Source: a virus
Taxonomy: Duplodnaviria; Heunggongvirae; Uroviricota; Caudoviricetes
Direction: 5' to 3' (one strand)
DNA length: 33,525 nt
IMG/VR virus record: IMGVR_UViG_2703718822_000009
A model generated the notes under the pieces. That model was not told where the DNA came from and did no database searches. It saw only the letters and a list, made by a program, of their open reading frames with translations. Each line of letters begins with the position of its first letter. Positions within the stretch are counted from its first letter, which is position 1. The translations under genes and the position numbers were made by a program. Of the stretch, positions 997 through 33,525 are shown piece by piece.

Positions 997-1062
997 AAGG
1001 AAGCCCCCCAATGAAAACATCATCTTGATCACAATTTTGAGAAATAAAGGCCAGATGGACCG

Positions 1063-4664: not shown

Positions 4665-4892
4665 ATGGCAAACCGCAAGCAACAGCGCGCCCGCGCTGAG
4701 CGTCTTCACATCCGCACTGAAATCAACCGCAGACTCCATCGGGCTGCATCTGTCACCTTCATCATGCAGTCAAACGCATTACACCGACTTAACGATGGTA
4801 TCGCTGCCGGGTATTACGCCGCCGTCTTCAGCTACCTGGCGGATGACCTGGCAGAACTGCAGGACCTTATCAACCAGCAACACCACCACTAA
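4665..4892 (+). CDS. Hypothetical protein
   Basis: ORF with AAGAGG RBS; basic N-terminus, His-rich C-terminus. Confidence 0.5.
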   Translation: MANRKQQRARAERLHIRTEINRRLHRAASVTFIMQSNALHRLNDGIAAGYYAAVFSYLADDLAELQDLINQQHHH

Positions 4893-4960
4893 ACAACATC
4901 CTGAAGCCATCCCGCACCCGTGCGCGGGAGGCTTCCGCACGTCTGTTACCGGAGGTTCTC

Positions 4961-5377
4961 ATGAAGAGCGTTAAGGGACTTTCAGATATTCAGGACTTTT
5001 TTAACTGGATGTGGGCAGTGGATCCCCGGCTGGCTTCCCGCCTGAACGACTGGCACGACTATTACCGCCGCGCCTGTAAACAGGCCACCAGACGCGTCAC
5101 CACATACGGGGATTTCTCCTTCACCGTTGACGACCGTTACCGCGTGGACGTGAAAGGTGATGGTGATGGTTTTGGTTTATTTCACATCAACGGAACCGAC
5201 AGCACCGCCATCAGCTGGTCGTCGTCAGAGATGACGCTTGTGCTGGAAATGACAACGCACAGCGTGGCCGTGAAAGGCATATACACCGCAGAAGACTTTA
5301 TCGGTGAATACCAGCGCCTTCTCGTGCTGTACCGCGCGGCGTTTCAGGCGGCGACTGCCGGGGAGTGCGACGCATGA
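4961..5377 (+). CDS. Hypothetical protein preceding the replication gene
   Basis: ORF with GGAGG RBS; stop overlaps the gpA start (ATGA). Confidence 0.55.
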   Translation: MKSVKGLSDIQDFFNWMWAVDPRLASRLNDWHDYYRRACKQATRRVTTYGDFSFTVDDRYRVDVKGDGDGFGLFHINGTDSTAISWSSSEMTLVLEMTTHSVAVKGIYTAEDFIGEYQRLLVLYRAAFQAATAGECDA

Positions 5378-17943: not shown

Positions 17944-17944
17944 C

Positions 17945-18406
17945 ATGGCCGGAAATGAACGTATCAGCGGCGGCGCGTTTGATATCAACTACGACGGGAT
18001 CATGATCCACGTGGAAAGCGCCACCGTCACCATCACCGACAACAGCGCCGTGGCACAGACGCGCGGCGTGCCGAACGGCTACACCCGTGGTTCCGTTTCT
18101 GCCGATGTGGAGGTGGAAGTCGACGCGCAGAACTTTAAAAAGTTTGGTGCCGTGGCCCGCTCTGCGGGGTCGTGGCGTGCCATTCCTGAAAAGGATTTTC
18201 TCTTTTATGCCAACAACGGCAGCGAGGAGGAAAAAATCGAGGTATTCGGCTGCGTCCCCATGTTGTCGGACGTGGTGAACATCAGCGCAGGTGAAGCCGG
18301 AAAGACCACGAAAAAAATCAAGTTCATGGTCACAAGCCCGGACTTTATCAGCATTGACGGCGTGCCCTACCTGTCAGCCCGTGACACCCGCGATCTGAAG
18401 GGGTGA
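17945..18406 (+). CDS. Putative tail tube-like protein
   Basis: ORF 17915..18406 trimmed to the ATG at 17945, which overlaps the upstream stop; about 153 aa. Confidence 0.4.
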   Translation: MAGNERISGGAFDINYDGIMIHVESATVTITDNSAVAQTRGVPNGYTRGSVSADVEVEVDAQNFKKFGAVARSAGSWRAIPEKDFLFYANNGSEEEKIEVFGCVPMLSDVVNISAGEAGKTTKKIKFMVTSPDFISIDGVPYLSARDTRDLKG

Positions 18407-18410
18407 TGCC

Positions 18411-18716
18411 ATGCCGGACGGTCAGACTTCACTCCTGGCAAAACTGATTATCATCGGTGCTGCCATCGGGCTGGGGCGTCTCATGGTGAGCCGCGATCGC
18501 ATCACAGCCCGTCTGCTTATCGGGCGAATGATTATGGGCTCTGCCGTGGCACCGGTTGCCGCCATTCCGCTGTTTAAATTTCCGGACATGCCGGAACTGG
18601 TTGTGGTCGGTCTGGCGTGCGCGCTGGGCATTATGGGCAGCGCCTTTATTGAAGAATGCTTTTGCCGTCTGGCAGACCGCTACCTGAAGCAGAAGGAACG
18701 CAGAAATGACCCATAA
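18411..18716 (+). CDS. Putative holin (three predicted TM segments)
   Basis: 101-aa protein with three hydrophobic stretches and a charged C-terminus (KQKERRNDP); heads a cluster containing the endolysin and spanins. Confidence 0.55.
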   Translation: MPDGQTSLLAKLIIIGAAIGLGRLMVSRDRITARLLIGRMIMGSAVAPVAAIPLFKFPDMPELVVVGLACALGIMGSAFIEECFCRLADRYLKQKERRNDP

Positions 18717-19458
18717 GCCTTACATTTCTCCTTTCCTGAGCCTGTATCACGCGCAGGCGCATGACGTTCTGCGAATGCTGCCGGAAAACAGTGTGGACGC
18801 GCTCATCACAGACCCGCCATACAGTTCAGGTGCCACACACAAGGCGGGGCGGACATGCCAGGGCAGCCACGCCAAATACATCAACGATGAAGATCTTCAC
18901 CGCTTTGAAGGCTTCGAAGGCGAGAACATGGACGCCCGTTCATGGGAATACTGGACGCATCTGTGGATGACACAGGCATGGCGCACGGTACGACCCGGTG
19001 GTTACGCCCTGGTCTTCACCGACTGGCGGCAGTTGCCCGCGCTGACGGACGCATTCCAGGCCGCCGGTTTTACCTGGCGGGGGATCGTGGCATGGAACAA
19101 GGGACGGGCCTCAAGAACACCGCATACCGGTTATTTTCGTCACCAGTGCGAATATGTGGTCTGGGGCAGTAAAGGCGCGCTGGGCAAATCCCCTTCCGGG
19201 CCGTTCGACGGCTGCATCACGCACCACACACGCCCACAGGAGAAACAGCACCCGACAGGTAAACCGGAATCGTTGATGGATGAGCTTGTGCGCGTGTGTG
19301 AACCCGGAGGGCTGATCCTCGATCCGTTTATGGGGTCCGGCACCACGGGCGTGGCCGCCCTTCGCCGGGGCTGCCGTTTTACGGGTATTGAACTGAACGC
19401 CCACTATTTCAGCGTGGCACAGGCGCGTCTTACGGGGACGGAACAGAGGAGTGACTGA
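18706..19458 (+). CDS. DNA methyltransferase (amino-MTase, N6-adenine or N4-cytosine), orphan
   Basis: Motif IV ITDPPY precedes motif I LDPFMGSGTTGVAA (beta-class order). Start overlaps the holin 3' end; stop overlaps the endolysin start. No adjacent restriction endonuclease. Confidence 0.85.
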   Translation: MTHKPYISPFLSLYHAQAHDVLRMLPENSVDALITDPPYSSGATHKAGRTCQGSHAKYINDEDLHRFEGFEGENMDARSWEYWTHLWMTQAWRTVRPGGYALVFTDWRQLPALTDAFQAAGFTWRGIVAWNKGRASRTPHTGYFRHQCEYVVWGSKGALGKSPSGPFDGCITHHTRPQEKQHPTGKPESLMDELVRVCEPGGLILDPFMGSGTTGVAALRRGCRFTGIELNAHYFSVAQARLTGTEQRSD

Positions 19459-19796
19459 TGAAACTGAGCGAAAAACAACAACTGTTTGCCGTCATGATTG
19501 CCGATCTCATCCACTGGGCACAGGAGCACGGCTATCGCCTGACCTTCGGCGAGGCATACCGCACGCCGGAGCAGGCCGCACTGAATGCGAAAAGCGGAAA
19601 AGGCATTCGCAACAGCCTTCACACGCTGCGCCTCGCGGTGGACTTCAACCTGTTCATTAACGGCGAATACCAGGCCGATACCGACGCCTACAGGCCGCTG
19701 GGGGAATACTGGGAATCCATCGGCGGCACATGGGGCGGACGCTTCAGCCGGGCAGACGGCAATCATTTCAGCCTTGAGCACAACGGGGTGAAATGA
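19458..19796 (+). CDS. Endolysin, peptidase M15-like
   Basis: 112 aa with SLHTLRLAVDF and GNHFSLEH, matching the zinc-binding H...D...H pattern of M15 peptidases; GAGGAG RBS. Confidence 0.78.
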   Translation: MKLSEKQQLFAVMIADLIHWAQEHGYRLTFGEAYRTPEQAALNAKSGKGIRNSLHTLRLAVDFNLFINGEYQADTDAYRPLGEYWESIGGTWGGRFSRADGNHFSLEHNGVK

Positions 19797-20179
19797 TGAA
19801 ACAGGTGGCGGGCTGCCTGGTGATCCTCTTTGCCGCCATGTGGGCGGGCTGGCTGGCCCATGACTGGCATGACGCCAGGGTGGCGCTTGCCGAACAGGAA
19901 GCCATGGAAGCCACGCGACGTGCGGTAACAGAAGCCGGGCAGCAGTCCGCCCGCATACTGGAAAAACGGCTGGAGGCGTTAAAGGGCAATGAAATTCACA
20001 CTGAACGCGTTATTCACACGGAAACCGTCCGCCCGGTATTCCGCAATGTGTGCGCTACTGATGATTACGTCCGGCTGTTCAACGCCCGTGCTGAAGCCGC
20101 TGAGCGTACCCTGGCAGGAAAACCAGCTGACGGAATGCCCGAAGACACTGCCGAGACTGGCAGGCCCGACGGGCGCTGA
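19793..20179 (+). CDS. i-spanin (Rz-like)
   Basis: N-terminal TM segment (VAGCLVILFAAMWAGWLA) then a charged helical periplasmic region; ATGA-coupled to the endolysin. Confidence 0.6.
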   Translation: MMKQVAGCLVILFAAMWAGWLAHDWHDARVALAEQEAMEATRRAVTEAGQQSARILEKRLEALKGNEIHTERVIHTETVRPVFRNVCATDDYVRLFNARAEAAERTLAGKPADGMPEDTAETGRPDGR

Positions 20180-20282
20180 TTTTGATGCGGCACTGCGAAC
20201 CCTCACGAGCCGCTACACCGAATGCGCCGCCAGGCATAACAGCCTGGTGGAAACCATACGAAACACGGAGAAACTGCAATGA
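19989..20282 (+). CDS. o-spanin (Rz1-like lipoprotein), overlapping the i-spanin
   Basis: Alternative frame overlapping the 3' half of the i-spanin; lipobox-like LLMITSG|C; start at 19989 or 20046 unresolved. Confidence 0.55.
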   Translation: MKFTLNALFTRKPSARYSAMCALLMITSGCSTPVLKPLSVPWQENQLTECPKTLPRLAGPTGADFDAALRTLTSRYTECAARHNSLVETIRNTEKLQ

Positions 20283-20554
20283 CCACGAAGAACACCGGCA
20301 CCATCATCCTGTCCGTTGCGGGCGTAACCCTGAGCTTTGAACCGAACAAAACGGCATTTAACAACCTCATCAACGAAATCACGATGACCAACAAGGTGGC
20401 GCCGATGAGCACCTATCTTAACCGCATCGTGACACCTGCCAGCCGCGACGCACTGGCTGACCTGATTGCGCGTTATCCGGGCTGTGAGATGCAGATCGTC
20501 GAGAAGATTAACGAGGTTTACTCCCCGAAACTGGAGATTGAGTTAAAAAACTGA
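20279..20554 (+). CDS. Tail assembly chaperone, short form (gpE / lambda G analogue)
   Basis: 91-aa ORF immediately upstream of the tape measure gene; ends ...ELKN with the heptamer A AAA AAC just before the stop. Confidence 0.6.
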   Translation: MTTKNTGTIILSVAGVTLSFEPNKTAFNNLINEITMTNKVAPMSTYLNRIVTPASRDALADLIARYPGCEMQIVEKINEVYSPKLEIELKN

Positions 20555-20742
20555 CCGCGCGGGTCGAAAGCATCCGCCGCAATCCCCTTGAGCAGTATCT
20601 GGCATTGCGGCGTCACTACCTCCCCGGAGAGCCGGACGACGAAGAGAGCATCGCCCGTGCCATCTGGCTGGATGAATATTTTGCCCGTACCCGCGCCAAC
20701 AAGACCGCTGAAGGTATAGCGATCGCATTTAACGGAAGGTGA
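20279..20742 (+). CDS. Tail assembly chaperone, frameshift-extended long form (gpE'/GT analogue)
   Basis: Zero frame to 20551, then -1 frame 20551..20742 (LTARVESIRRNPLEQYLALRRHYLPGEPDDEESIARAIWLDEYFARTRANKTAEGIAIAFNGR). Confidence 0.5.
20545..20551 (+). promoter_or_regulatory. Putative -1 programmed frameshift slippery heptamer (A AAA AAC)
   Basis: X XXY YYZ heptamer three nt before the chaperone stop. The -1 frame is open for 64 codons to a stop at 20740-20742, directly abutting the tape measure ATG at 20744. Confidence 0.55.
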
Positions 20743-20743
20743 C

Positions 20744-22930
20744 ATGGCCAGCCAGCTGGATTTCATTATCAATCTGACAGACCAGCTTACCCGCCCGCTG
20801 CGGCAGGTTCAGGAATCCGTGACGGGATTCGCCGAACGCTCGCAAGGCGCGTTCGCGCGTATCGGTGTGGGTGTGGCCGGACTGTGGGGCGTGGCCGAAG
20901 GTATCCGCGCCGCGATGGATCCGGCGTGGGAGATGCAGAAGGCGCTGGGCGAGCTTGAGGCCAAAGGCGTCGGGGCGCAGGCGCTGACCGCCCTCACCAC
21001 GCAGGCCATGAAACTGGGGACCGCATTCGGTCAGTCTTCCACGGAGATCATCCGTTCCGCATGGCATATTCGCGGCGCACTGGACGGACTGAGCGACGGG
21101 GATTTACCCCGTGTGACGGCAGCAACCAGCACCCTGGCCGTGGCTGCCCGCGTCAGCAGCGAAGAGGCGAGCGGCTACCTTGCCGCCATGGGTGCCCGTT
21201 TCCGCAGTGAGTTTTCTGCCATGGGTGCCGTGGGGTTTGCTGAAGATCTGGCAGGTAAAACCGCGTGGATGGTTCAGCAGTTCGGCGTGGAAATGAGCAC
21301 CATGCAGGAGCTTATTGAGGGCACCAAAAACGCGGGCGCGGATTTTGGCGTCAGCATGGCAGAGCAGTTTGCCATACTGGGCACCCTGTCACGGACCATG
21401 GGCACCGAGGCATCGGGCATCTATGAGGAATTCCTGCGCAGTGCCCCCGCTGCCGCACAAAAAATGGGGATGAGTTTTGTCGATGCCACCGGGAAGATTT
21501 TACCCATGGGTGACATCCTCGACCGTCTGCAGGCGAGGTTCGGCAGGAACATTGAGGGTAACGTGGCGGCACAACAGGCGCTGGATGACGCCTTCGGCAG
21601 TGGCGCGGACGTGATTAAAAAACTCTGGGGACAGCAGGAAATGCTTAACCGGAGCATATCAGCGCTGGGGCGTAATGACGGCATGAAGCGTGCCACGGAA
21701 ATGGCGGAAGCCATGACCGACCCGTGGGACCGCCTTGTGGCCTCCTTCTACAACATCCGGGCCGCCATCGGTAACGCCCTCTACCCCATTCTCGCACCAC
21801 TGGCTGGCCGTTTTGCCGATATCGGCGCGACGTTCGTGCGCTGGCTGAACATGTTCCCGAACATCGCCCGCTGGCTGGGTTACATCACGCTGACCATGCT
21901 GGCGCTGGGCGCAGCCGGTGCGGTCACGAACATCGTGCTGGGTGTGTTCAGCTTCATCATGGAAGGCCATAAGGCCATCATAAAGGGCGCCAGGGCAGCC
22001 TGGAGTCTGTACACGCTTGCACTCACAAAAGTACGCAGTGCCATCATTGCCACCAGTCTTGCCGCGCGTCTGGCGGGCGTGTCGTTTCTGACCATGAGCG
22101 CCCCGGTCCTCCTGGTTGCCGCCGCCATCGCTGCTCTGGTGGTGGTGGCCATTAAGTTCTGGCAGCCCATCAAAGCCTTTATTCGCGGCTTTATTGATGG
22201 TTTTACCAGCGCACTGGACGCCATGAGCCCGGTGACTGCCGCGTTCGGTGACATTGCCCGGGCGCTGGCCCCGGTATGGCAGGGCATAAAAACACTGTTC
22301 AGTGCCTTCTCCGATCTGTTTGCACCGGTACAGCTGACCACGGGACAGATGAACAGCGTCACCCGTGCCGGGGAAACATGCGGTCGCGTGGTGGCCGCAG
22401 CGGTAAGCATGATATCCCCCGCGCTGGAGGTGGTTATCAGCGTGATCAGAACCCTGATCGACATCTTCGCCATCGTCATCAGAGGGTGGCAGGACGTGGT
22501 GGCTGCATTTGACCCGACCGCCCCGGTCGAATCCTTCCGGAAAATGGCGGGGATCATCGGTAACGTCTTCGGGGACTTATGGAACGTCATTAAAAACTCG
22601 TTTAACCGGACGTGGAACTGGCTTGCGGAAAAGCTGAACAAAATCCCCGGTATCAGTATCGACATGAAGCCCACGGAGCAGGTGAACACCATGACGCGGG
22701 GCGCAACAGGCAGCACCGTACCTCCGCAGATTGCAGAAACCGCCGTCCCGGCACTGGCAGGCAACCGCATCAGCGCAGAGCTGCCACCCGGAGGCATACG
22801 CAACCAGATACGCACGGACACCTCAACCCGTATCGACAACAGCCGGACGTTCGGCAATCTGACAATCAACACGCAGAACCCGATGACGCCGGGGCAACTG
22901 GATGAATGGACGGAGCTTTACGCGGGATGA
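20744..22930 (+). CDS. Tail tape measure protein
   Basis: 728 aa; Ala/Gly-rich helical N-terminal region and hydrophobic central segments; follows the frameshifting chaperone. Confidence 0.85.
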   Translation: MASQLDFIINLTDQLTRPLRQVQESVTGFAERSQGAFARIGVGVAGLWGVAEGIRAAMDPAWEMQKALGELEAKGVGAQALTALTTQAMKLGTAFGQSSTEIIRSAWHIRGALDGLSDGDLPRVTAATSTLAVAARVSSEEASGYLAAMGARFRSEFSAMGAVGFAEDLAGKTAWMVQQFGVEMSTMQELIEGTKNAGADFGVSMAEQFAILGTLSRTMGTEASGIYEEFLRSAPAAAQKMGMSFVDATGKILPMGDILDRLQARFGRNIEGNVAAQQALDDAFGSGADVIKKLWGQQEMLNRSISALGRNDGMKRATEMAEAMTDPWDRLVASFYNIRAAIGNALYPILAPLAGRFADIGATFVRWLNMFPNIARWLGYITLTMLALGAAGAVTNIVLGVFSFIMEGHKAIIKGARAAWSLYTLALTKVRSAIIATSLAARLAGVSFLTMSAPVLLVAAAIAALVVVAIKFWQPIKAFIRGFIDGFTSALDAMSPVTAAFGDIARALAPVWQGIKTLFSAFSDLFAPVQLTTGQMNSVTRAGETCGRVVAAAVSMISPALEVVISVIRTLIDIFAIVIRGWQDVVAAFDPTAPVESFRKMAGIIGNVFGDLWNVIKNSFNRTWNWLAEKLNKIPGISIDMKPTEQVNTMTRGATGSTVPPQIAETAVPALAGNRISAELPPGGIRNQIRTDTSTRIDNSRTFGNLTINTQNPMTPGQLDEWTELYAG

Positions 22931-23277
22931 ACACGCCATCGCTTTACATCGACCTGCTTATCACTGACGGCAGTTTTACGCTGAACAGCGGAAACGAGCC
23001 ACAGCGATGTGATAACCGGGTCAGCATCGGCCAGGACGTGGTGCACAGCATTATCGAAAGCGGGATCGCCGCCCTGCTTATCGGCGAACGCAGCCCGACG
23101 CTGCGCAGCGACATCATTACCCGGCTTATCCTCCTGGTTGAGGATGATGAACGGCTGGTTCCGGGGACGGTGTTCATTAACGAAGAGGCACCGGGCAGGC
23201 TGCATGTGACGGCAGAGACACAGGATTTTGGACGCATAAACACCAGGGTGAACTATGAAAGGGAAACCGGACGTTGA
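22927..23277 (+). CDS. Putative baseplate protein (gpW/gp25-like by size and position)
   Basis: ORF 22906..23277 trimmed to the ATG at 22927, which overlaps the tape measure stop; about 116 aa preceding the J-like gene. Confidence 0.45.
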   Translation: MNTPSLYIDLLITDGSFTLNSGNEPQRCDNRVSIGQDVVHSIIESGIAALLIGERSPTLRSDIITRLILLVEDDERLVPGTVFINEEAPGRLHVTAETQDFGRINTRVNYERETGR

Positions 23278-24439
23278 TTTTAATCAGGTATTCCGTGAAA
23301 GCGGTATGCCGGAAACAGAAGAAGAGATCGCCACCCTCTTTCATGAGGATGTACAGAAAACCGGACTCATCACCAACACCTCGCCCATGAGTCCCTTCTG
23401 GCGGCTCATTCTGACCATTGTCATACGACCCGTTCAGTGGCTGCGTGATGCGCTGGTTGACGTTGTACTGCCCGGTATGTTTGTCGCCACGGCTGACCGG
23501 TCACTTCTTCTGCTTCATGCGCACGACGTCAACATCACCCCAAAACCGGCCAGTAAGGCCAGTGGCGTGATCTGGTTTGCCAAAACCAGGGCAAATGATG
23601 ATGTTCTCATCCCCGAAGGGACCATCGTCCAGACCGCCAGAATTAACGGCGTGATATACAGCATGGCCGTCACGGAGGAAACGCTTATCAGCAGCGGTAA
23701 AAGCGGCGCATCCGTTCCCGTGGAAGCCACCACCGAAGGCAGCGGGCACAACCTCGCGCCGGGGTACTTCCGTATCCTTCCCGTTGCCATTCCCGGCATT
23801 GCATCCGTGGTGAACCGGGAAGACTGGCTGACCGTACCGGGTGCCGATGAGGAAAGCGACGACGAACTGCGCGACAGAATACGCAACCAGTTTAACCTCG
23901 TGAGCAGTTACCACACGGATGCCGTCTACCGGGGACTTATCGCCAGCGTGGCAGGCCTGAGCATCGACCGGATCTACTTTCAGCACGACGCCCCGAGAGG
24001 ACCGGGAACGGCCAACGCCTACCTGTTACTGGACAGCGGCGAGGCCTCTGCCCCTTTCATTGAAGCAGTCAACCGCTACATCAACGAAGAGGGGCACCAC
24101 GGACACGGGGATGATTTGCAGTGTTTCGCCATGCCGGAGACGCGTCACCGTCTGGACGTCACCGCATACATCAGAAGTTCCACCACCCTGCCACCGGACG
24201 GCGCGGAAGGGCTGAAACAGGATATCGGCGACCTGATACGCTGCGCTTTCCGGGAGAACGCCCGCTTTAATGTGAAAAAAGTCTGGCCCTATTCGCGCTT
24301 TTCGTTTTCCACGCTGGGCAAGGAAATTCATCAGACCTTCCCGGTGGTGGCTTCGGTTCAGTTTTCACTGGAAGACATCATCAGCGATCTGGCCGTGCCA
24401 CGGCTCGAATCCCTGACAGTGGAGGTGGTCATTGAATGA
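23255..24439 (+). CDS. Baseplate protein, gpJ-like
   Basis: 394 aa, positioned between the W-like and I-like genes. Confidence 0.6.
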   Translation: MKGKPDVDFNQVFRESGMPETEEEIATLFHEDVQKTGLITNTSPMSPFWRLILTIVIRPVQWLRDALVDVVLPGMFVATADRSLLLLHAHDVNITPKPASKASGVIWFAKTRANDDVLIPEGTIVQTARINGVIYSMAVTEETLISSGKSGASVPVEATTEGSGHNLAPGYFRILPVAIPGIASVVNREDWLTVPGADEESDDELRDRIRNQFNLVSSYHTDAVYRGLIASVAGLSIDRIYFQHDAPRGPGTANAYLLLDSGEASAPFIEAVNRYINEEGHHGHGDDLQCFAMPETRHRLDVTAYIRSSTTLPPDGAEGLKQDIGDLIRCAFRENARFNVKKVWPYSRFSFSTLGKEIHQTFPVVASVQFSLEDIISDLAVPRLESLTVEVVIE

Positions 24440-24980
24440 CTTTTTGCAGCGGCTTCGCTCGCTGAAACTGCCCTCCTGGATGGACAGGGGGGAACCCGAC
24501 AAACTGCTGCGGGCCGCGCAGGCGTTCTGGTCCCGCGTATGGGAATGGATCACCTGGCCCGTGCGCCAGTTTGACCCCATGACATGTGCAGAGCCCGTAC
24601 TTGATTTACTGGCATGGGAGCGGGACATCACCCGTTTTAAAGGTGAACCCACATCACTGTACCGCCGCCGTATCGCCCACGCCTTTGTCAATGCACAGGA
24701 CGCCGGAGAGGTGGCAGGATTTATTGCCATTTTTGAACGGCTGGGCATTGGACATGTGGAGTTGCAGGAGCGCAAGCCCGGCGTGGACTGGGATGTGATC
24801 CTGGTGCAGGTGACAGACAGCCAGATAGCCGACAACAGCGATCTTCTTCTGGAGATCATCCGCAAATATGGCAGGACATGCCGCCGTTACCGTTTTGAGG
24901 TGGAAACCCTTAACCCCTTCATCATCCATTATGGCGCATACGAAGGGGAGTATATCTGCTGGACGGCCAGGGCAGAGTGA
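24432..24980 (+). CDS. Baseplate/tail protein, P2 gpI-like
   Basis: TTG start after GGAGGTGG. MTCAEPVLDLLAWERDI...RRRIAHAF...GFIAIFERLGIGHVELQERKPG resembles P2 gpI as recalled. Confidence 0.65.
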   Translation: MNDFLQRLRSLKLPSWMDRGEPDKLLRAAQAFWSRVWEWITWPVRQFDPMTCAEPVLDLLAWERDITRFKGEPTSLYRRRIAHAFVNAQDAGEVAGFIAIFERLGIGHVELQERKPGVDWDVILVQVTDSQIADNSDLLLEIIRKYGRTCRRYRFEVETLNPFIIHYGAYEGEYICWTARAE

Positions 24981-25002
24981 ATGACTGAAGGAGTATGACT
25001 TT

Positions 25003-27063
25003 ATGGCGAAATCTGTAATTACCAGCGCCTTTATCCGGCTCAAGGCACAGCAGGCGGCGGAAGGCACCCCCGTTGTGCTGGATGAGTTTGTTTTTGCAAA
25101 CGTCCCGGACCTCAACCCGGAAACACCGGTATCCCCCGACGAAACCCTGCCACCTGAAGATCAGATTGTTCACCGCCAGGCCGTTGGCAAAACCGGCGTG
25201 GTGAATGAGAATGCCGTGGTTTATTCGGTCACCCTGGGGGCAGAGCTGGGTGATTTTGAATTTAACTGGGTGGGACTGGTCAGCAAAGCAACCAGCACGC
25301 TGGCCATGATTGTTCACGCCCCCACACAGAAAAAAATCAGAACCCACAACGGTAACGAAGGTAATGTGCTGGTCCGTTCCATGCTCATGGAGTACAGCGG
25401 TGCGAAGGAAGCCACAGGTATCACCACCCCGGCGCAGACCTGGCAGATAGACTTCACGGCACGCCTGGCGGCCATGGACGAGCGCCAGCGCCGGGAAAAC
25501 ATCGATATTTACGGTAACGCTGCATTCTTTGGGGACGGCTGGCTGGTTAAAAAAGGCGAAAGATGGTCACTCTGCAAAGGGACCGGTTACGTGGAGGGAT
25601 TACGCGCAGAGCTGACCGAAGACATACCGCTGACCACGCCAGACTTCCCGTCCCGTATCTGGCTGACAGTATGGTGGACCGGTACGCTCACCAGTGAATG
25701 GACGGTGGAGCACGATATTATCATGGCCGACCCCGCCGCCACGGAAGAGATCCTGCTGGAAGCACACAGGAAGGAGGCCGCCCGGCAATATTTTTTTGCC
25801 CTTGCTGACATTGATGAAGACGGCAACGTGACTGACCTGCGCCCCAGAGGAACGCCGGAAGAACGCCGCTGGCTGGACGCTCTGAAAAAACACGAGAAAT
25901 CACGCAACCACCCGGACGCAACGCTGAAAGAAAAGGGCTTCACACAGTTAAGCAGCGCCACCACCAGTACATCAGAGACACAGGCAGCCACGCCAAAGGC
26001 TATAAAGATCGCCATGGACAACGCCGATGGTCGGCTTGCGAAAAACCGCAATGGTGAGGACATCCCCAACAAGGAGCTGTTCCTGATCAACGTGGGCGCA
26101 CCACGCGTTTATGCAAAAGACGGGTACGTGGGTGAAGCAGGGCAACGCTGGACAACAGAACAATTCGTGGAATGGCTGAATGAACGTGGCGCCTTCAGAC
26201 CAGGACTCTGGATATTCAAAGCCAATATTTCACTTTCCCGGCACAGCGTGCTCACTGATACGGGCTATGGTGATATCTGCCTTGGAGGCTGCCTTATCGA
26301 AGTATCAGGCGACATCAACGGGGGGATCATCAGGATCACGACAGGTCTCGAAAGCCCAAACCCTGCCGACATGTACCTCCGCACACAGTTCACCGGGGTT
26401 GTTTTAAATAAAGGGAAAAGCACCATCTGGTACCGCACTTACACGGACAAAAACAAACCCACACCACAGGACATCGGCGCACTGCCTGCAAGTGAGTTGT
26501 TACCCGCAGGCGTTCCCCTGCCGTGGCCGTCAGACACCCCACCTGCCGGTTACGCCATCATGGTGGGGCAGACATTCGATAAAGCACGATATCCCCTGCT
26601 GGCAAAAGCCTATCCGGATGGTCGTATCCCGGATATGCGTGGCTGGACAATCAAGGGAAAACCTGCCAGCGGTCGTGCGGTATTGTCACAGGAGCAGGAC
26701 GGCATCAAATCGCACACCCACGGAGGGAGCGTCTCAAATACTGACCTTGGCACAAAAACGACCTCATCCTTCAATTACGGCACAAAAACAACAAACAGCG
26801 CGGGGCCGTTCAGCGCAACAATATCATTAAGAACCGCCACCGCGTCACCGGAAGGCGGCGGTGACTGGACCGCATACGGGCCGGGCTCCGGGGCGAACCT
26901 GATCGCCAGAGTTTCGGAACACACACATTCGGTAAGCATTGGCGAACACATCCACACGCTCGCACTGGGTCAACATGGCCACGGCCTGACCATTAACCCC
27001 ACCGGTAATGCGGAAAACACCGTCAAAAACATCGCATTTAACTACATCGTGAGGCTTGCATAA
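25003..27063 (+). CDS. Tail fibre protein, P2 gpH-like
   Basis: [39 protein letters not shown] matches the conserved gpH segment; C-terminus ...[11 protein letters not shown] is the typical enterobacterial fibre terminus. Confidence 0.85.
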
Positions 27064-27659
27064 TGACCTTTAAAATGAGCGAACACCCACAGACAATTAA
27101 AATCTACAACCTGTCAGCCGGAACAAATGAATTTATCGGCGAAGGCGATGCCTGGATCCCTCCGCATACCGGACTGCCTGCGCACTCAACGGACATTGCC
27201 CCGCCTGACATTCCTGAAGGACACGTGGCTATCTTTGATGAGGATGAAAACGCCTGGCACCTCATGGAAGATCACCGGGGTAAAGCCGTCTGGCGTCTGG
27301 AGTCGGGGAGCGCCTTACTGATTACTGAGCCGGGCCCGTTACCGGAAAACGTGACAGAAATAAAACCGGACGGGGAGTTCTGCCGGTGGGATGGTTCATC
27401 ATGGGTTAAGGATGAAGCAGCAGAACAGGCTTACCGGGTGAGCGAGGCGGAGAACAAAAAACGGGAATTAATACAGGAAGCAACAAATACAATAAACATC
27501 CTCCAGGATGCCGTGGATTTAAATATGGCGACCGACGATGAAAGCGCCCTGCTTCCCCTGTGGAAAAAATACCGGGTATTACTGAACCGGACAGACACGG
27601 GCAACGCGCCGGATATTGTCTGGCCTGAATCCCCTTCGCCGGATCATCACGCAGGCTGA
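27063..27659 (+). CDS. Tail fibre assembly chaperone (gpG/Tfa-like)
   Basis: 198 aa directly after the fibre gene with a 1-nt overlap; N-terminus typical of Tfa proteins (pattern-level). Confidence 0.75.
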
Positions 27660-27670
27660 CCGGAGGCACC

Positions 27671-28396
27671 ATGACGTGGACAAGAAAAACAATCAGCGTC
27701 AGCGCTGACATGCCCCCGCTGAGCTGTTCCGTCATCCCCGTCACACCGTGGACTTACGGGCTGGGACGATATGAAGAATCGGGGGTATATTTAAGCCCTC
27801 CGAACGCCATAAACTGGCTGGCCGGGAAAATGGCCGGAAGCCGTGCATCCGGCGACGTGACCATTATCATGATTGCCGAAAACACCCACGATCTTTTTAT
27901 ACAGTCAATGGCGGCACTGACCACCGTTCTGCCCGTGCCGGTATTCACGCAGGCACAGCGCATGGCACAGGCTGCCGCCAGTCTGAGCACTGACAAAATG
28001 CAAATCCCGATCACCACCGACACCCTGCCCGCACCTGTGCATCTTTCCGTTTCCACAATACGCAGCGCAGTCAGTGCCGCCCGTGCAGCACAGGCCAGGC
28101 AGCTGGCAGCACAACGCCCGGATGCCGCAGGGCTTCGCCGCCAGATAAGCCGCTTTATCAGCAGACGGGCTGGCGCACTTGCCGGACTGGAAGAGGGGAT
28201 CAGAACACTGGCAGAACAGAAGGCGCAGGCCTGGGTATTTCAGTACCGGGGGTATCACCGCGCCGCAGCGGCGGCCATGGTGAAGGATATCCCGGCACCG
28301 ACCGCCGTACATACTGTGGCCGCACTCCTGGCGGCAGACTCATTAACCGAACTGGGGAAAATGATCCATGAGCCAGACCGCACTGCTCGCCCTTGA
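27671..28396 (+). CDS. Hypothetical tail-module protein
   Basis: GGAGG RBS; Ala-rich 241-aa protein between the Tfa gene and the hub/spike gene. Confidence 0.45.
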   Translation: MTWTRKTISVSADMPPLSCSVIPVTPWTYGLGRYEESGVYLSPPNAINWLAGKMAGSRASGDVTIIMIAENTHDLFIQSMAALTTVLPVPVFTQAQRMAQAAASLSTDKMQIPITTDTLPAPVHLSVSTIRSAVSAARAAQARQLAAQRPDAAGLRRQISRFISRRAGALAGLEEGIRTLAEQKAQAWVFQYRGYHRAAAAAMVKDIPAPTAVHTVAALLAADSLTELGKMIHEPDRTARP

Positions 28397-28910
28397 TGGT
28401 GAGGGTATTTTCATGCAGAACATGGTGATTTCGCCCTCGATGCAGTTCCAGGAAAAGGACCAGTCCGGTCAGACATCGAGCACCGCGAACGCCGAGCAGG
28501 GCATCAAGGCCAAAGAGCTTCGCGTAACCGGGATGATCACCTTTGACAATGAGCGGGCCCTTCAGCGCATTTTCCAGCTGGCCTCTGCCACCACCGGGGA
28601 CGGTGCCCTGAAAGTTTACCGTATCGCAAACGCCACCGCTGCCGCCATTAACTTTCGTGAAGGGACATTTTCCGGGCAGATAGACGCACAGCAGCAGACC
28701 GACCGCCTCGCCTGGCAGGTCAGCTTCACATTACGCGAAAGACGAAGCGTACCGGAAAAACGCCAGGCACGCGCCACCCCCGGCAGCAGCCGTAAACAGA
28801 CGCCGCAGACGCCCGGCGCAAAAGGCAAAACCGTGGCCAACGAAACACCGGAGAAAATGACCTGGTTCGAAGAAAAGGTCCTCAAACCCGTCAATGATGC
28901 GCTGGAGTAA
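28368..28910 (+). CDS. Hypothetical tail-module protein (start uncertain)
   Basis: ORF 28368..28910; an alternative ATG at 28413 has a GAGGG RBS and avoids overlap with the upstream gene. Confidence 0.45.
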   Translation: MSQTALLALDGEGIFMQNMVISPSMQFQEKDQSGQTSSTANAEQGIKAKELRVTGMITFDNERALQRIFQLASATTGDGALKVYRIANATAAAINFREGTFSGQIDAQQQTDRLAWQVSFTLRERRSVPEKRQARATPGSSRKQTPQTPGAKGKTVANETPEKMTWFEEKVLKPVNDALE

Positions 28911-28912
28911 CC

Positions 28913-30586
28913 ATGAACCCCACTAAACGTCTGTTACTGGGTAACGACACCATTCAGCTGGTCAGTTGTTCCGTCATGCTTGAGCTGAACGCGTGCGGAC
29001 GCGGATTTATCACGGCCAGAACAGAGCAGAACTACACCGGGCGCCCCGTTCGTCTCGATATCGGATACGGAAACGACCTGGTGCGCTGGTTTACCGGATA
29101 CGTTGAACGCAGCCAGCCCGCTGAAAACGGCTCGGTGCGGCTTCTGATTCGTGAAATGGCGGGGATCCTTGATCACCCCTTCCCCTGTTCATTTCAGCAC
29201 CCGACAATGCGCACGGTCACACAGTGGCTGAGTGAGACCAGCGGGCTGGAAATCATCCTGCCGGACAACGCGGCTTACACTGACAGACCCGTTCCGCATT
29301 TCACGCACAGCGGCACGGGCTACGAACTGCTGGCCAGTCTGGGGCGTATTTTCTCCGTACCGGACTACATCTGGCATCCGTTACCGGACGGCGGCATTAT
29401 GGCCGCTGCCGCCGCGCAGGGGATGTTTTCCGGTCGCCCCGTCACCATCCCGCACGAGTTCAGCCAGGCATCAACGGGCGGACACAGTATGACCCTCCCG
29501 ATGATTCAGACGCTGCGACCGGGTGTGGAGGTGAACGGTCAGCGCCTGACGATGGTCATGCTGGAAGATGACAACATGACCATCACGTGGACACCACGCA
29601 ATAAAGCCACCGGCGCCCCCCTCCAGAAGTCCCCTTTCCGTCGCCAGGCTGAAAAGGCCTTCCCTGAACTGGCATCAGGGCTTCACCTGCCCAAACTGGC
29701 ACGTGTTGAGGCGCCGACCGAAGCCGTCAGCGCGGGCAATATTGCCGACCCGTTCAGACCCCGCTACGCGGTGAATCTCCAGCTGCTTGACGAGAACGGC
29801 AACCCGGCAGCGGATACGCCCGTTTATAACGCCGTTCCCCTCCCCGTTCCTATGGCGGGCAGTGAGTCCGGCATGTTCCAGTTCCCGCCACCCGGAACCC
29901 TGGTGGAAGTGGGATTTGTGGAAGGCCGGGCGGATAAGCCCTTCATCCGCCAGATAATGGCAGAGGGCCACAATCTGCCCGACGTGAAGCCGGGCGAGCA
30001 GTTGCAGCAACAGCGCGACGGCGTATCGCAGCGCGTGACGGTCGCCGGAGACTGGGAGCGCCAGACAGACCAGCGGATACAGGAGACATCACGCGAGCGC
30101 GTGGTGAGCGCAGACGAGGAGACGCGGAGCCTGACCAGCCGGGAGACCACCATACAGGCAACCGACACAACCACCGTCCTGGGCGTATCCACGCTTCAGG
30201 CTGGCGCAGTCACCCATATCACTGAAGAGAACTACAGCATCAGCACGGGCGGGCACATGATGGTGGTTGCCGGTACCTGTGAGCGCGACGTGGAAGGCGA
30301 CACACTGGACACCGTGGGCGGCAGCCTTACCGAAAAGATTAAGGGCGTCCGTCACAGTATTGCGCTGGCGCAGAAGCTGGTTGGCGATACGGTGAAGCTG
30401 GGAAACGAGGGCATTAATGTACTGACCATGCTGACGGACCTTGCCGATGTGGTGGAAGAGCTGGCCGATATTACGGCATCACATACCCACCCCAAAACGG
30501 GCACGTCTCCGCAGGCCGCACAGTTCAGCCAGGTCGCTCAGGAGTGCCGCCAGCTTAAAAATAAATATTCACCAATAATCGAATAA
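28913..30586 (+). CDS. Putative baseplate hub/central spike protein (gpD/gpV- or VgrG-like)
   Basis: 557 aa; internal GMFQFPPPGTLVEVGFVEGRADKPFI resembles the OB-fold spike motif of gp5/gpV/VgrG proteins (pattern-level). Last gene of the late operon. Confidence 0.55.
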   Translation: MNPTKRLLLGNDTIQLVSCSVMLELNACGRGFITARTEQNYTGRPVRLDIGYGNDLVRWFTGYVERSQPAENGSVRLLIREMAGILDHPFPCSFQHPTMRTVTQWLSETSGLEIILPDNAAYTDRPVPHFTHSGTGYELLASLGRIFSVPDYIWHPLPDGGIMAAAAAQGMFSGRPVTIPHEFSQASTGGHSMTLPMIQTLRPGVEVNGQRLTMVMLEDDNMTITWTPRNKATGAPLQKSPFRRQAEKAFPELASGLHLPKLARVEAPTEAVSAGNIADPFRPRYAVNLQLLDENGNPAADTPVYNAVPLPVPMAGSESGMFQFPPPGTLVEVGFVEGRADKPFIRQIMAEGHNLPDVKPGEQLQQQRDGVSQRVTVAGDWERQTDQRIQETSRERVVSADEETRSLTSRETTIQATDTTTVLGVSTLQAGAVTHITEENYSISTGGHMMVVAGTCERDVEGDTLDTVGGSLTEKIKGVRHSIALAQKLVGDTVKLGNEGINVLTMLTDLADVVEELADITASHTHPKTGTSPQAAQFSQVAQECRQLKNKYSPIIE

Positions 30587-31280: not shown

Positions 31281-31440
31281 GTAAATTACGCGCGGGTGCC
31301 TTTCGGCTGACGGCTGGAAGGATTACCTGAAGGCCGGATGAGGAAAGGCCCCGAGTCAAACATTTGTTTAACCCGAGGCCCTAACCCATCTACCTCGCAA
31401 GTGGAAGGTTAGCGCCTCCCTGTAAAAGGAGTCAAGCGCT

Positions 31441-31581
31441 ATGCCGCAAAAAACGATCATAGTGAGCATTTTATGCATAACTATTTTGATGATTGTCTGG
31501 ATGATACACAAGTCACCGTGTGAGTTCAGGCTTAACATCATGTGGTCAGAATTTGCGGCGTTCTTGCAGTGTAAACAGTAA
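31441..31581 (+). CDS. Hok/Gef-family type I toxin (46 aa)
   Basis: Hand translation MPQKTIIVSILCITILMIVWMIHKSPCEFRLNIMWSEFAAFLQCKQ: TM helix then K-S-x-C-E-x-R and E-x-A-A-F, as in Hok/Gef proteins; AAGGAG RBS. Confidence 0.8.
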   Translation: MPQKTIIVSILCITILMIVWMIHKSPCEFRLNIMWSEFAAFLQCKQ

Positions 31582-32003: not shown

Positions 32004-32340
32004 ACATTACACGCGGGTGCCTTTCGGCTGATGGCTGGAAGGATTACCTGAAGGCCGGATGTGGAAAGGCCCCGAGTCAACTTTAATGTTAACCCGAGGC
32101 CCTAACACTTCCTACCGTGACAAGTGGAAGGTTAGCGCCTCCCTGTANNNNNNNNNNNNNNNNNNNNNNNNNNNNNNNNNNNNNNNNNNNNNNNNNNNNN
32201 NNNNNNNNNNNNNNNNNNNNNNNNNNNNNNNNNNNNNNNNNNNNNNNNNNNNNNNNNNNNNNNNGGTCGATATGGCACCCTTTCTCCGTTGAATTACATA
32301 GACATTTGCCCGCGATATGCGGGCTATATTTTTATTTTTT
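32004..32340 (+). other. hok/sok-like locus, copy 2 (interior replaced by an N-run)
   Basis: 5' arm 32004-32147 and 3' arm 32265-32340 are closely similar to copy 1 (same GGGTGCC / GGCACCC pair and the same gcccgc...gcgggc terminator at 32308-32324); the toxin ORF region is masked by N. Confidence 0.55.
32148..32264. other. Run of N (assembly gap or masked sequence)
   Basis: 117 consecutive N characters inside hok-like copy 2. Confidence 0.95.
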
Positions 32341-33525
32341 GAATAGGTTAATAAATTCAGGTTTTTTCTTATCTCCTGCTTCCCTTCGTTTAACCCAACA
32401 ACACCCTGACTGAAGTAAACAGACAAATTCATCCTGCTTCAGCTCTAAGGTGTCTTTAAGTTTTAATTGTTTTTTCGCAGCATCAGGAACAAAAACATCA
32501 ACAATAATCTTTCCGGGGTCATACAGTTGAGTTTCAATCAGCACAGGTAATTTATGGACAGGTCTGGGTTCCATACGAGAAAAAGAAAACTCACCATCCA
32601 TCACACCATCAAAAGTACTTACAGAATCGTAACCAGAAAAGCACTCATATTTCACCTGAAGAACAACAGCATCATCAAGCTTTAAAAAATCGCAATAAGA
32701 ATCATACGCTAGGCGATCACTATAAAAAACATCACCGCGATTAAACTGAAAGGAATCCCCTTGCGTCCAAATTTCATAATTAAAAAACTCTGTTTTTACT
32801 GGGGTAAGTTTTATATCCAAAGAATCCTTGTAACACTCTTTTACAGCAAAGCGCCAACCAGCTGCGTAACCATCAACAAATACCGCAATCAACGCATTAC
32901 TACGGCGAAACTCCCTTACAGTACGGATAGAAAGCGAGAACTCATCTATCATACTCTTGTAAGTGTTAACATCCTTCTCAAGCGATTTACTGATATCATT
33001 CTCAACCACGCAGTCTTGCTCAAGAGGAATTTCACCAGTATCAATAAAATTGATAAATTGTTCTTCTGTCAGAATAATTACGCCATAATCGCTGGCTTTC
33101 TGAACTTTCCGCCACCCTTTGTTCTTTCCTACACAAAGGAAAAACAAACTTTTTCCAACATCAGACTTAACATCAATACCATTTTCTTTTGCAAAAGCGC
33201 TTAAGCGAGATTTATCAGACTGGTCAAATCCGGTAAAACAAATTGAAATTGAATTCTTTTTGGGTGAAGATTTTCGGGGGGGGGCAATATACTGACTGAA
33301 ATCAGTTTCAGACGCAACCTTATTCAACTCCTGGTCGCTAGAAAACATCTGAATAACACGGTCTTTCAAAAAGGTACGAAATGCGCGACGAGTTAAAGAG
33401 TATCCTTGTAAATAATCCCCTTTTTCAGCCACCTTTATCACGCATTGAGCCGACAACTCCCCTCTACCGTTAACATACAGAAAAAACGCCTCTTTATTTT
33501 CGTTTATCATTTCCCTATCAAACAT
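32332..33525 (-). CDS. BRCT-domain protein with uncharacterised C-terminal domain (start at window edge; may be 5'-truncated)
   Basis: 397-aa ORF in a visibly AT-rich segment. Residues about 95-165 (ISICFTGFDQSDKSRLSAFAKENGIDVKSDVGKSLFFLCVGKNKGWRKVQKASDYGVIILTEEQFINFI) resemble the LigA BRCT domain (pattern-level); the C-terminal ~230 aa has no recognisable motif. Confidence 0.65.
   Translation of the reverse strand: MFDREMINENKEAFFLYVNGRGELSAQCVIKVAEKGDYLQGYSLTRRAFRTFLKDRVIQMFSSDQELNKVASETDFSQYIAPPRKSSPKKNSISICFTGFDQSDKSRLSAFAKENGIDVKSDVGKSLFFLCVGKNKGWRKVQKASDYGVIILTEEQFINFIDTGEIPLEQDCVVENDISKSLEKDVNTYKSMIDEFSLSIRTVREFRRSNALIAVFVDGYAAGWRFAVKECYKDSLDIKLTPVKTEFFNYEIWTQGDSFQFNRGDVFYSDRLAYDSYCDFLKLDDAVVLQVKYECFSGYDSVSTFDGVMDGEFSFSRMEPRPVHKLPVLIETQLYDPGKIIVDVFVPDAAKKQLKLKDTLELKQDEFVCLLQSGCCWVKRREAGDKKKPEFINLFKK

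Follow-up and report, generated by a model that had tools for sequence, protein, structure and literature searches.

The window, a stretch of 33,525 nucleotides, ends in an AT-rich open reading frame on the minus strand (32332-33525) that encodes a protein of 397 amino acids. The TAA stop codon is located at 32332-32334 and the ATG start codon at 33523-33525, and both agree with the RefSeq proteins WP_231238016 and WP_249868968. An earlier note on this DNA had recognised the AT-rich frame, and its GC content is indeed 37.9%, compared with 56.6% for the prophage body. The note also took the gene to run off the window. However, the ATG that borders the window edge is annotated as the start in two complete genomes, whose proteins align from M1 and differ only in 2-3 residues and in the number of prolines at a homopolymer tract. 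The reading frame is thus complete. Its product carries three modules: an N-terminal WYL-like barrel, a BRCT domain and a C-terminal domain, here called domain X. The profile phrog_36782 covers the whole protein (E-value 2.6e-73, residues 6-387 versus positions 8-398 of 407). Between the BRCT domain and domain X, the predicted model places a linker helix (residues ~178-199; 32929-32994, minus strand), and the stretch ahead of it is predicted to be disordered, with pLDDT values below 50 at residues 169-184.

The gene is part of a P2-like E. coli prophage. It is located between the two att sites, attL and attR, and no other gene separates it from attR. Att cores of the form CGCCACC(C/G)GAAGGTGGC flank the prophage. 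The core was detected as a 9-mer inside an imperfect repeat of 17 nt, with no long direct repeats at k≥11, and was validated by rebuilding the empty attB site. The rebuilt site is 100% identical over 714 nt to many genomes, and at least 80% of it is present in one piece in 3126 of 5426 genomes. The attR core lies ~135 bp from the BRCT gene and coincides with the terminator of ytfP. The U-tract of this terminator ends up at attL and attR retains the hairpin without it; because of this missing U-tract, transcripts of ytfP may read through into the BRCT gene. A scan for consensus promoters upstream of the gene on its coding strand found none. The prophage integrase (1-1032, minus strand), identified by its ORF, by the RefSeq annotation as phage integrase and by the att mapping, is found at the opposite prophage end. 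In the circular phage, where the two ends are joined at attP, the integrase therefore immediately precedes the BRCT gene and has the same orientation. Partner genes had been suspected beyond position 33525, but in complete RefSeq genomes the core genes ytfP, tamB and tamA follow.

Two hok/sok loci are located on the plus strand on the other side of the gene. The first (31294-31581) comprises a sok RNA at 31294-31452, which matches Rfam family RF01794 with an E-value of 1.9e-8 but under the gathering score, and an ORF of 46 amino acids at 31441-31581 that RefSeq annotates as a Hok/Gef family protein. The second (32015-32264) shows a sok-like RNA at 32015-32149 (Rfam E-value 7.9e-5) and is interrupted by 116 N (32149-32264), an assembly gap that masks the hok ORF; in locus L009 the second hok/sok locus is intact. 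A hairpin, GCCCGCGATATGCGGGC, followed by a T-run (32308-32340, plus strand) terminates the second hok locus, as judged by its sequence and by the terminator score in L009. The BRCT gene runs towards it, and its stop codon and the T-run overlap. Homology with sister prophages that lack the BRCT gene stops exactly at this terminator and stop codon. The sister prophages, which are integrated at serS, carry a third hok locus where the BRCT gene stands here. The BRCT cassette of 1.2 kb and 38% GC thus replaces a third hok/sok locus. Its position between attL and attR, its absence from sister prophages and its deviant GC content mark the BRCT gene as cargo of the P2-like prophage, a putative lysogenic-conversion (moron) cassette. 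Among complete E. coli genomes, only 2 of 5426 carry the gene and one more carries an allele of 58% identity. Regarding the setting described in the earlier note, the vicinity of toxin loci stands, with two hok/sok loci nearby, whereas the gene does not lie beside the prophage but inside it. The accessory status that had been proposed is upheld by the rarity of the gene and its absence from sister prophages.

The BRCT domain comprises residues ~90-163 (33037-33258, minus strand) and was recognised in Pfam, NCBIfam, PDB and Foldseek searches. Pfam family BRCT (PF00533) matches residues 90-159 with an E-value of 8.6e-9 and 36 bits, above the cutoff of 21.3 bits, so that the BRCT segment described from the sequence is confirmed. 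The predicted model shows a beta-alpha-beta-beta-alpha-beta-alpha fold, with strands at residues 94-98, 129-132 and 150-153 and helices at 102-114, 138-147 and 154-163. Nearly all of the top 50 Foldseek matches are BRCT domains, the best being those of RFC1, LigA, Rad4 and PARP4. The best sequence matches in the PDB are the BRCT domain of Thermus LigA (1dgs and 1l7b; E-value 1e-3) and RFC1 (2ebu). Residues of the TG...K phosphate pocket are retained as T98, G99 and K140, which align to the TG and G-SK-EKA motifs of the Thermus LigA domain. Across 24 aligned sequences, G99 and K140 are invariant and T98 is present in at least 90%. Judged by these pocket residues, the domain is predicted to belong to the phosphate-binding subclass of the LigA/RFC1/BRCA1 type. 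BRCT domains of the LigA/RFC1 class bind 5'-phosphorylated DNA ends and nicks.

The LigA and RFC1 domains are also closest in both sequence and fold, and the G-x3-G-x2-K-x3-A and TG motifs are common to them and the window protein. This raises the question whether the gene derives from the housekeeping NAD-dependent DNA ligase, either as a fragment or as a paralogue. NCBIfam LigA models match residues 53-157, and the PHROGs label for the WYL-BRCT module is 'DNA ligase'. However, the score against TIGR00575 is 29 bits versus a cutoff of 444, and the alignment (model positions 542-652) is confined to the BRCT part. The adenylation, OB, zinc-finger and HhH domains are absent in a Pfam scan. LigA carries its BRCT domain at the C-terminus of the enzyme, whereas here it is placed between the WYL barrel and domain X and the ligase catalytic core is missing. 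In addition, phages conserve the family at full length, including the WYL and X domains. With the catalytic domains absent, the LigA score far below the cutoff and the full-length family conserved, a ligase fragment is ruled out; we assign it virtually no chance. The ligase link considered in the earlier note nevertheless holds in part: the BRCT domain is of the ligase type and domain X is kin to proteins encoded next to ligA, but the lack of catalytic domains and the full-length family phrog_36782 speak against a ligase remnant.

The N-terminal module (residues ~12-62; 33340-33492, minus strand) is modelled as a five-strand SH3/Sm-like barrel with strands at residues 13-18, 24-35, 38-43, 48-53 and 57-61, and carries the motif QGYS...RTFRxDR. 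The Pfam WYL family (PF13280) matches below threshold (E-value 0.046, 14.2 bits versus a cutoff of 21.8). When the barrel profile was compared with the PDB, the top matches were the C-terminal barrel of 8bnv/8bns, with a best E-value of only 0.0086, PafBC and PafC. The entries 8bnv/8bns are deposited as 'AAA family ATPase', and we take their C-terminal barrel to be the WYL domain of bacterial Pif1-type helicases. In Foldseek, PafBC appeared at rank 23. WYL models of PADLOC match the homologous modules in relatives with E-values of 2e-6 to 6e-6. We therefore describe the N-terminal domain as WYL-like and putatively ligand-sensing. Ligands of solved WYL domains are ssDNA or nucleotides. The modelled SH3/Sm-like barrel, the R.F..DR motif and a phage-conflict setting are shared with the WYL sensors CapW, BrxR, DriD, PafBC and the Pif1 WYL domain. 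On the other hand, the window protein has neither the wHTH nor the WCX domain of WYL transcription factors and is consequently not a member of this group of regulators. Neither the barrel nor the poly-C tract described below had been mentioned in the earlier note.

Domain X (residues ~200-397; 32335-32928, minus strand) is beta-rich and uncharacterised. The C-terminal region, in which no motif had been recognised from the sequence, amounts to ~200 amino acids, and searches in Pfam, NCBIfam and PDB sequences gave zero matches. Its conserved core comprises residues ~204-285 (32671-32916) with the motifs RS..LIA.F.DGYA.GW.FAV, LDIK and WTQG. A single match was obtained in BFVD, an uncharacterised protein of 168 amino acids from an uncultured phage, and tblastn against 50,697 GenBank phage genomes returned essentially nothing. 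The family comprises 770 representatives at 50% identity and has neither a Pfam entry nor a solved structure. Weak fold similarity was seen to the small Tudor-like barrels of UvrD, CarD, PcrA and Mfd, which have a role in binding RNA polymerase. A second WYL-like barrel was ruled out for domain X by profile-profile comparison.

Gene order provided a link to DNA ligation. Stand-alone X genes adjoin ligA on its 3' side, often overlapping it, and a gene for a SWIM zinc finger commonly comes next. X lies directly 3' of ligA in three of four long contigs and, among 54 non-redundant metagenomic loci whose upstream sequence was readable, in 30, the latter fraction being biased upward because the ligA-linked loci were retrieved by patterns seeded from ligA-linked members. 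The order ligA-X-SWIM was found in 15 of those 30 loci. In other bacteria, domain X thus usually accompanies NAD-dependent DNA ligase as a conserved operon partner; to our knowledge, E. coli has no X gene beside ligA. Since domain X is an operon partner of ligA, a function directed at nicks or DNA ends is indicated. Literature searches for SWIM proteins together with ligA found no dedicated LigA partner protein, nor do we know of one. The gene-order link provides a handle on a sizeable unannotated family and ties it to an essential, long-studied enzyme.

The linker between the WYL-like barrel and the BRCT domain is disordered and contains a poly-C tract on the coding strand (33276-33284, minus strand; G9 on the plus strand) that encodes Pro-Pro. 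No other run of at least seven G or C occurs in the window, and the number expected by chance in the ORF is 4e-5. Reading near-identical loci directly gave tract lengths of C10, C12 and C15, compared with C9 here; C13 and C14 were inferred from other alleles. These near-identical copies, with at least 99% protein identity where aligned, include alleles in frame and out of frame. For the 15 members listed of a cluster of 325, most assemblies are out of frame at the tract, and the C10 frameshift allele (328 amino acids) occurs on 81 contigs compared with 12 for the full-length form; for some assemblies, homopolymer sequencing errors are possible. The excess of frameshifts is compatible with gene decay and with phase variation alike. 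In the case of decay, the gene would be functionless cargo that entered the hok array through recombination and is being lost via homopolymer frameshifts, in line with the counts for the C10 allele and with its rarity in complete genomes. However, full-length orthologues of 36-58% identity and ~395-405 amino acids share 48 invariant columns and are kept across Enterobacterales, Aeromonas and Parashewanella, the alleles read carry no further disabling mutations, and in-frame C9, C12 and C15 alleles occur beside out-of-frame ones in nearly identical genes, a pattern of reversible slippage. We consider decay very unlikely. The locus is a candidate simple-sequence contingency locus and would be a phase-variable prophage gene in E. 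coli, where homopolymer contingency loci are unusual. Homopolymers control pglX of the Streptomyces Pgl/BREX system, through a G-tract, and mod of type III R-M systems. In these phase-variable defence genes, a homopolymer within the ORF toggles the frame, as it does here, where the length variation reported is between near-identical strains.

Relatives of the gene are found in the lysogeny modules of temperate phages, in the order CI repressor, target gene and integrase. In 13 of 16 loci, the target gene is followed by a tyrosine integrase gene, and the two often overlap by 4 nt. Of 22 upstream genes scanned, most encode HTH or CI-type repressors (HTH_3 in 10, Phage_CI_repr in 5 and Peptidase_S24 in 4, with some overlap). 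In one locus (L010), the gene starts 3 nt past the gene of a CI repressor that contains an S24 peptidase domain. Some relatives show a split form, in which CI, WYL-BRCT and X are adjacent genes, and others show reversed fusions or alternative BRCT or SWIM partners. An obligatory RexB-like membrane partner was ruled out, as transmembrane neighbours are present in some loci only.

The location in or beside the CI-int regulatory operon in most relatives would fit a DNA-damage sensor for the lysis-lysogeny decision, in which ssDNA or nicks lead to derepression or to a change of int/cox and thereby to SOS-independent inducibility. Literature searches on BRCT proteins in connection with prophages, anti-phage activity or PDC-S48 yielded only a 2014 survey of WYL proteins, in which a WYL+BRCT fusion is among the fusions listed (Makarova et al. 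2014, PMC4012209), and a remark in one 2026 preprint. This preprint describes modules of cI and a BRCT protein that replace quorum-sensing modules in Roseobacter prophages and suggests a DNA-damage response for them (PMC13345283). For the solved WYL regulators DriD, CapW and PafBC, responses to ssDNA have likewise been described, and the weak similarity of domain X to the Tudor-like barrels points in the same direction. On the other hand, the protein has no DNA-binding HTH, and in the window prophage integration separates the gene from C-int. Close sister prophages keep their regulatory genes but do without the BRCT gene, which is very rare among E. coli P2-like prophages, and some of the host phages already possess RecA-cleavable S24 repressors. 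A frameshift-prone tract that is mostly out of frame in the listed members would also be unexpected for a core regulator. We regard a role as damage sensor as the leading alternative to our preferred reading, but as rather unlikely.

In Peduoviridae, phrog_2561, labelled 'DNA ligase', comprises WYL-BRCT modules of ~160 amino acids (phages 500465-1, Cartapus, MLG42, PV94 and PHL101). These are homologous to window residues 12-167 (E-value 6e-37) and take the same genome position, between ogr/D and att/int. They lack domain X, and the window protein represents the rarer fused form, phrog_36782. Because WYL-BRCT proteins without X are common at the equivalent place in isolated Peduoviridae, X may not be the effector. 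The widespread occurrence of WYL-BRCT at the ogr/att end of these phages, all of which are cos phages, might also suggest a DNA-end factor of the phage itself, which binds its own cos ends or nicks and either aids host LigA or shields the ends, the att/int position being incidental. The LigA-type BRCT domain, the ligA operon partner X and the placement in the circular phage, after int on the same strand with no U-tract terminator in between, would agree with this. However, cos ligation takes place earlier than the synthesis of any new phage protein, and sister phages do without the gene. Recent cargo, rather than a core function, is indicated by the low GC content and by the exchange of a hok locus for this cassette, and frameshifted alleles are common. 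Such a factor thus appears improbable.

The link to defence genes raised in the earlier note is plausible but found no counterpart among known systems. PADLOC-DB v2 gave no system-level match for the window protein, only a match to PDC-S48 limited to the BRCT domain and a weak WYL match, and the relatives showed the same outcome. PDC-S48 has a C-terminal BRCT domain in common with the window protein (E-value 5e-7, model positions 324-406 of 411), while the WYL and X parts remain unaligned, and relatives with the reversed domain order were not matched either. In gene order, the relatives resemble two known cases of prophage defence genes that share a transcript with the repressor: lambda rexAB, which adjoins cI in the lysogeny operon, and BstA of Salmonella prophage BTP1. 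Both are located directly 3' of cI, as are the genes of the relatives, and are likewise accessory with a patchy distribution, but neither shows kinship to the window protein in sequence or fold.

Our preferred reading, which we put forward tentatively from domain content and gene context, is that the protein is expressed in the lysogen, senses DNA nicks, ends or ssDNA and acts in phage-phage conflict. The protein would be made in the lysogen. In the free phage the C-int transcript would cover the gene, and in the prophage transcription would start at a promoter of the gene itself or continue from ytfP. Its target would be an element that enters the cell or replicates there, recognised by nicks, gaps or cohesive ends in its DNA. 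There, BRCT-X might interfere with a ligase-dependent step, for example by keeping replication nicks or annealed cos ends from being sealed, and competing phages or mobile elements would be excluded as a result. The full-length protein would be turned on and off by slippage in the poly-C linker. Domain architecture, cargo status, the lysogeny-module setting of the relatives, the linkage of X to ligA and the tract polymorphism were observed, whereas we infer binding to such DNA structures, an effect on ligation, the exclusion of competitors and expression in the lysogen. A more specific version seems to us unlikely, though worth stating: BRCT-X, with or without SWIM, may be an undescribed accessory module of LigA that phages captured without the ligase and coupled to a WYL domain. 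It would then serve as a ligase decoy or nick interceptor that blocks the circularisation or replication of rivals by occupying nicks and cos ends or by titrating LigA, and that is phase-variable through poly-C in E. coli. If temperate phages do use ligase-less BRCT-X proteins against competitors, the mechanism would be aimed at DNA sealing, not at cleavage or NAD depletion.

At the att/int-proximal end of P2-like phages, hok, RES and WYL-BRCT(-X) genes were observed, and this end represents another variable cargo site of these phages.

The gene under study is a minus-strand ORF of 397 aa at 32332-33525. The core of the earlier observation, an AT-rich gene for a BRCT protein with an unrecognised C-terminal region, stands. 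The GC content of the gene is 37.9% compared to 56.6% for the prophage body, the BRCT domain is matched by Pfam above threshold (residues 90-159), and the C-terminal ~200 aa gave no match in Pfam and PDB sequence searches. The gene was thought to run off the window and to have possible partners beyond 33,525. Its start is in fact complete: the ATG at 33523-33525 is the annotated start in the complete E. coli genomes NZ_CP148318 and NZ_CP067426, whose proteins align from Met1 with 2 or 3 residue differences and a different number of prolines at one spot. Past 33,525 come ytfP, tamB and tamA, which belong to the core genome.

The window represents a P2-like prophage with genes for integrase, C-type repressor, Cox, gpA replication endonuclease, Ogr and portal-terminase-capsid proteins, and with a non-P2 tail module. 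At 16798-30586, P2-type head, replication and regulation genes are joined to this un-P2-like tail (DUF2586, DUF2590, baseplate J, M15 peptidase). The prophage is distant from sequenced phages, no single one of which covers more than 12% of the first 25 kb, at ~71-78% identity. The tail-fibre gene is one intact 686-aa ORF in the window (25003-27063), and two partial pseudogene pieces separated by a ~500-bp gap are annotated in both complete genomes (L001 8707-10773), which could mean that the fibre gene has been rearranged or contains a variable segment.

The gene had been placed beside the prophage end, but it is located inside the prophage. An imperfect 17-nt repeat, CGCCACC(C/G)GAAGGTGGC, occurs twice, once downstream of int and once between the ATG of the gene and ytfP. 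In the complete genome L009, attL lies at 457-474 and attR at 34096-34112. The empty attB site was rebuilt by joining the outer flanks at the repeat and was matched to 5426 E. coli genomes. It was covered to at least 80% in one piece in 3126 of them, many with 100% identity over 714 nt. The gene is therefore prophage cargo, the final gene ahead of attR. It is rare: it was detected in 2 of the 5426 complete E. coli genomes, and a 58%-identical allele occupies the same site in one more.

Sister prophages (L148 3241-4579 and L149 3663-5001) share the tail end but are integrated next to serS instead of ytfP. At their right end, three hok/sok loci stand in tandem and the BRCT gene is absent, and their homology with the prophage of the window ends exactly at the stop codon of the BRCT gene. 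Upstream of its ATG, 18 nt of hok-like sequence persist along with a hairpin of the hok type. The homology break and the hok remnants indicate that the gene is a 1.2-kb cassette in place of the third hok locus. The second hok/sok locus of the window is broken by a 116-N assembly gap (32149-32264) that masks its hok ORF; in L009, two intact hok/sok loci are 722 bp apart and 92% identical.

Integration also rearranges a terminator. The hairpin in attB is the ytfP terminator, and its U-tract is placed at attL, behind int, whereas attR retains the hairpin followed by AAAATTGATG, without the U-tract. With the U-tract moved, host transcription from tamAB-ytfP may read through into the BRCT gene in the lysogen. 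In the circular phage, one strand carries C, int, attP and the BRCT gene in this order, and judging from this arrangement read-through from int could reach the gene in the free phage.

The AlphaFold model of the full protein, based on an alignment of 24 sequences, has a pLDDT of 77, and a separate model of the C-terminal part alone has a pLDDT of 84 and a pTM of 0.76. A predicted five-strand barrel (residues 12-62, motif QGYS...RTFRxDR) is called WYL-like here. It scores below the Pfam WYL threshold, and its profile best matches, in the PDB, the C-terminal barrel of 8bnv, together with PafBC and PafC. 8bnv is a Pif1-type helicase whose C-terminal barrel we take to be a WYL domain. PafBC was also recovered by Foldseek with the model, and homologous modules of relatives match PADLOC WYL models at about 2e-6. 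A disordered linker separates the barrel from the BRCT domain (residues 90-163), which keeps the phosphate-pocket Thr-Gly and Lys (T98, G99, K140) and is followed by a long helix (residues 178-199). The nearest kin of this domain are the LigA and RFC1 BRCTs. NCBIfam LigA models nevertheless cover only the BRCT part, with 29 bits against a cutoff of 444 bits, and a ligase fragment was rejected with near certainty.

In the segment encoding the linker, a G9 on the plus strand (33276-33284) is the one homopolymer of G or C in the window that reaches 7 nt, and its chance expectation is 4e-5. Near-identical genes carry C9 (as in the window), C12 or C15 in frame, encoding PP, PPP and PPPP, and others carry a frameshifted C10; C13 and C14 alleles probably exist as well. 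Among the members listed for a protein cluster of 325, 81 contigs bear the C10 allele and 12 bear full-length alleles. The start of many proteins marked ‘partial’ falls right after the tract, which points to contig breaks there. The majority of public E. coli alleles are either out of frame or on a contig broken at the tract. That the gene is decaying cargo seems improbable to us. The tract shows the hallmarks of a contingency tract prone to slippage, with clonal sampling and homopolymer sequencing error restricting this interpretation. In CP061233.1, which is deposited as an E. coli plasmid of 1.0 Mb but is probably a chromosome fragment, the gene appears as two ORFs (992091-993289), and its length of 1199 nt implies a C14 tract.

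The C-terminal domain, termed domain X, gave 770 representatives at E<=1e-3 in a profile search of 1.84 billion cluster representatives. The majority stand alone and are 145-230 aa long; those with a source name are all labelled hypothetical, and none has a Pfam domain. Four members on long contigs were examined, and in three of them X directly follows ligA, the full-length gene for NAD-dependent ligase (L064 2900-5834, L065 3074-5480, L067 2431-5811). In two of these loci X and ligA overlap by 11 nt, and in two the gene of a 110-aa SWIM zinc-finger protein comes next. A metagenome scan, annotated locally by simple ORF calling and phmmer seeds, yielded 62 non-redundant X loci (among L068-L131). 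Upstream sequence was readable for 54 of them, and in 30 of these ligA directly precedes X. A SWIM gene adjoins X on the downstream side in 16 loci and on the upstream side in 16, and 15 show the complete order ligA-X-SWIM. Nine loci have a non-ligase BRCT partner near X. These fractions are upper estimates, since ligA-linked members served as seeds for the search patterns. The linkage of X to ligA is itself clear, and we found no paper on a ligA-X-SWIM operon, which seems not to have been described previously. The core motifs RS..LIA.F.DGYA.GW, LDIK and WTQG are common to phage and ligA-linked members. Given the linkage and these motifs, the phage protein can be seen as a combination of the BRCT end of LigA with the LigA operon partner, in which a WYL sensor takes the place of the catalytic core. 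That it acts as a ligase decoy is a more radical reading, unlikely in our estimation.

Full-length relatives form just 24 clusters among 5.8 billion proteins. They are ~395-405 aa long, except for a 329-aa frameshift allele, one of 382 aa and one of 485 aa with a second C-terminal BRCT. Named sources are Enterobacterales and Aeromonas; the majority are metagenome-derived. P2/186-like prophages of Pectobacterium, Aeromonas, Yersinia, Serratia and Parashewanella and many IMG/VR contigs show the order repressor, an optional gene, BRCT gene and integrase. A tyrosine integrase is the downstream neighbour in 13 of 16 loci, frequently with a 4-nt overlap, and upstream neighbours are mostly HTH/CI-type repressors. 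On a lambdoid contig (L010), a reversed-order relative begins 3 nt past an S24-type CI repressor. In a split form, CI is followed by a 176-aa WYL-BRCT protein and a stand-alone X; X is also partnered by SWIM zinc fingers and by another BRCT protein, phrog_3989, fused or adjacent. In PHROGs, the full-length family is phrog_36782 (unknown function) and the WYL-BRCT module is phrog_2561, wrongly labelled ‘DNA ligase’. GenBank phage genomes contain only this X-less module, in Peduoviridae, between ogr/D and att/int. A factor serving the phage's own DNA ends is a rather improbable reading.

With repressors and integrases as neighbours, the protein might be a DNA-damage sensor for the lysis-lysogeny decision, as suggested in passing for cI/BRCT modules (PMC13345283, a 2026 preprint). 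We consider this possible, if somewhat doubtful, and favour a role in conflict over that of a core regulator because the distribution is patchy, the cassette replaces a toxin-antitoxin locus and the tract switches the frame. Our best but tentative reading is that the lysogen makes the protein as a sensor for DNA with nicks, gaps or cohesive ends; the WYL domain would serve for ssDNA and the BRCT domain for the 5′-phosphate, and BRCT-X would hinder a ligase-dependent step of a competing element. Confidence is low because the protein has no match in the defence-system database and no effector fold, and X-less forms are common. The finding belongs with sensor-coupled prophage accessory genes. The WYL and BRCT domains themselves are known, and their fusion is on record in a 2014 survey (PMC4012209). 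The elements that appear to be new are the domain X family, the linkage of X to ligA and SWIM, the repeated siting of BRCT-X modules in phage lysogeny operons and the hypervariable tract of the E. coli allele.

The isolated P2-like Escherichia phage Cartapus (L063 2505-4480) has the order repressor, int, RES-domain protein and WYL-BRCT, the third being a 401-aa NAD+-binding protein. The att-proximal end of P2-like phages seems to be a hotspot for conflict-related cargo. Some relatives also encode a small protein that has a transmembrane segment, its gene either separating the repressor from the WYL-BRCT-X gene or closely following the latter (L007 9351-9953, phrog_5825, with Pfam Flk_N on record; L028, L030 and L034 at ~4750-5390; L010 9179-9924). 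It was rejected as an obligatory partner, being absent from some loci.
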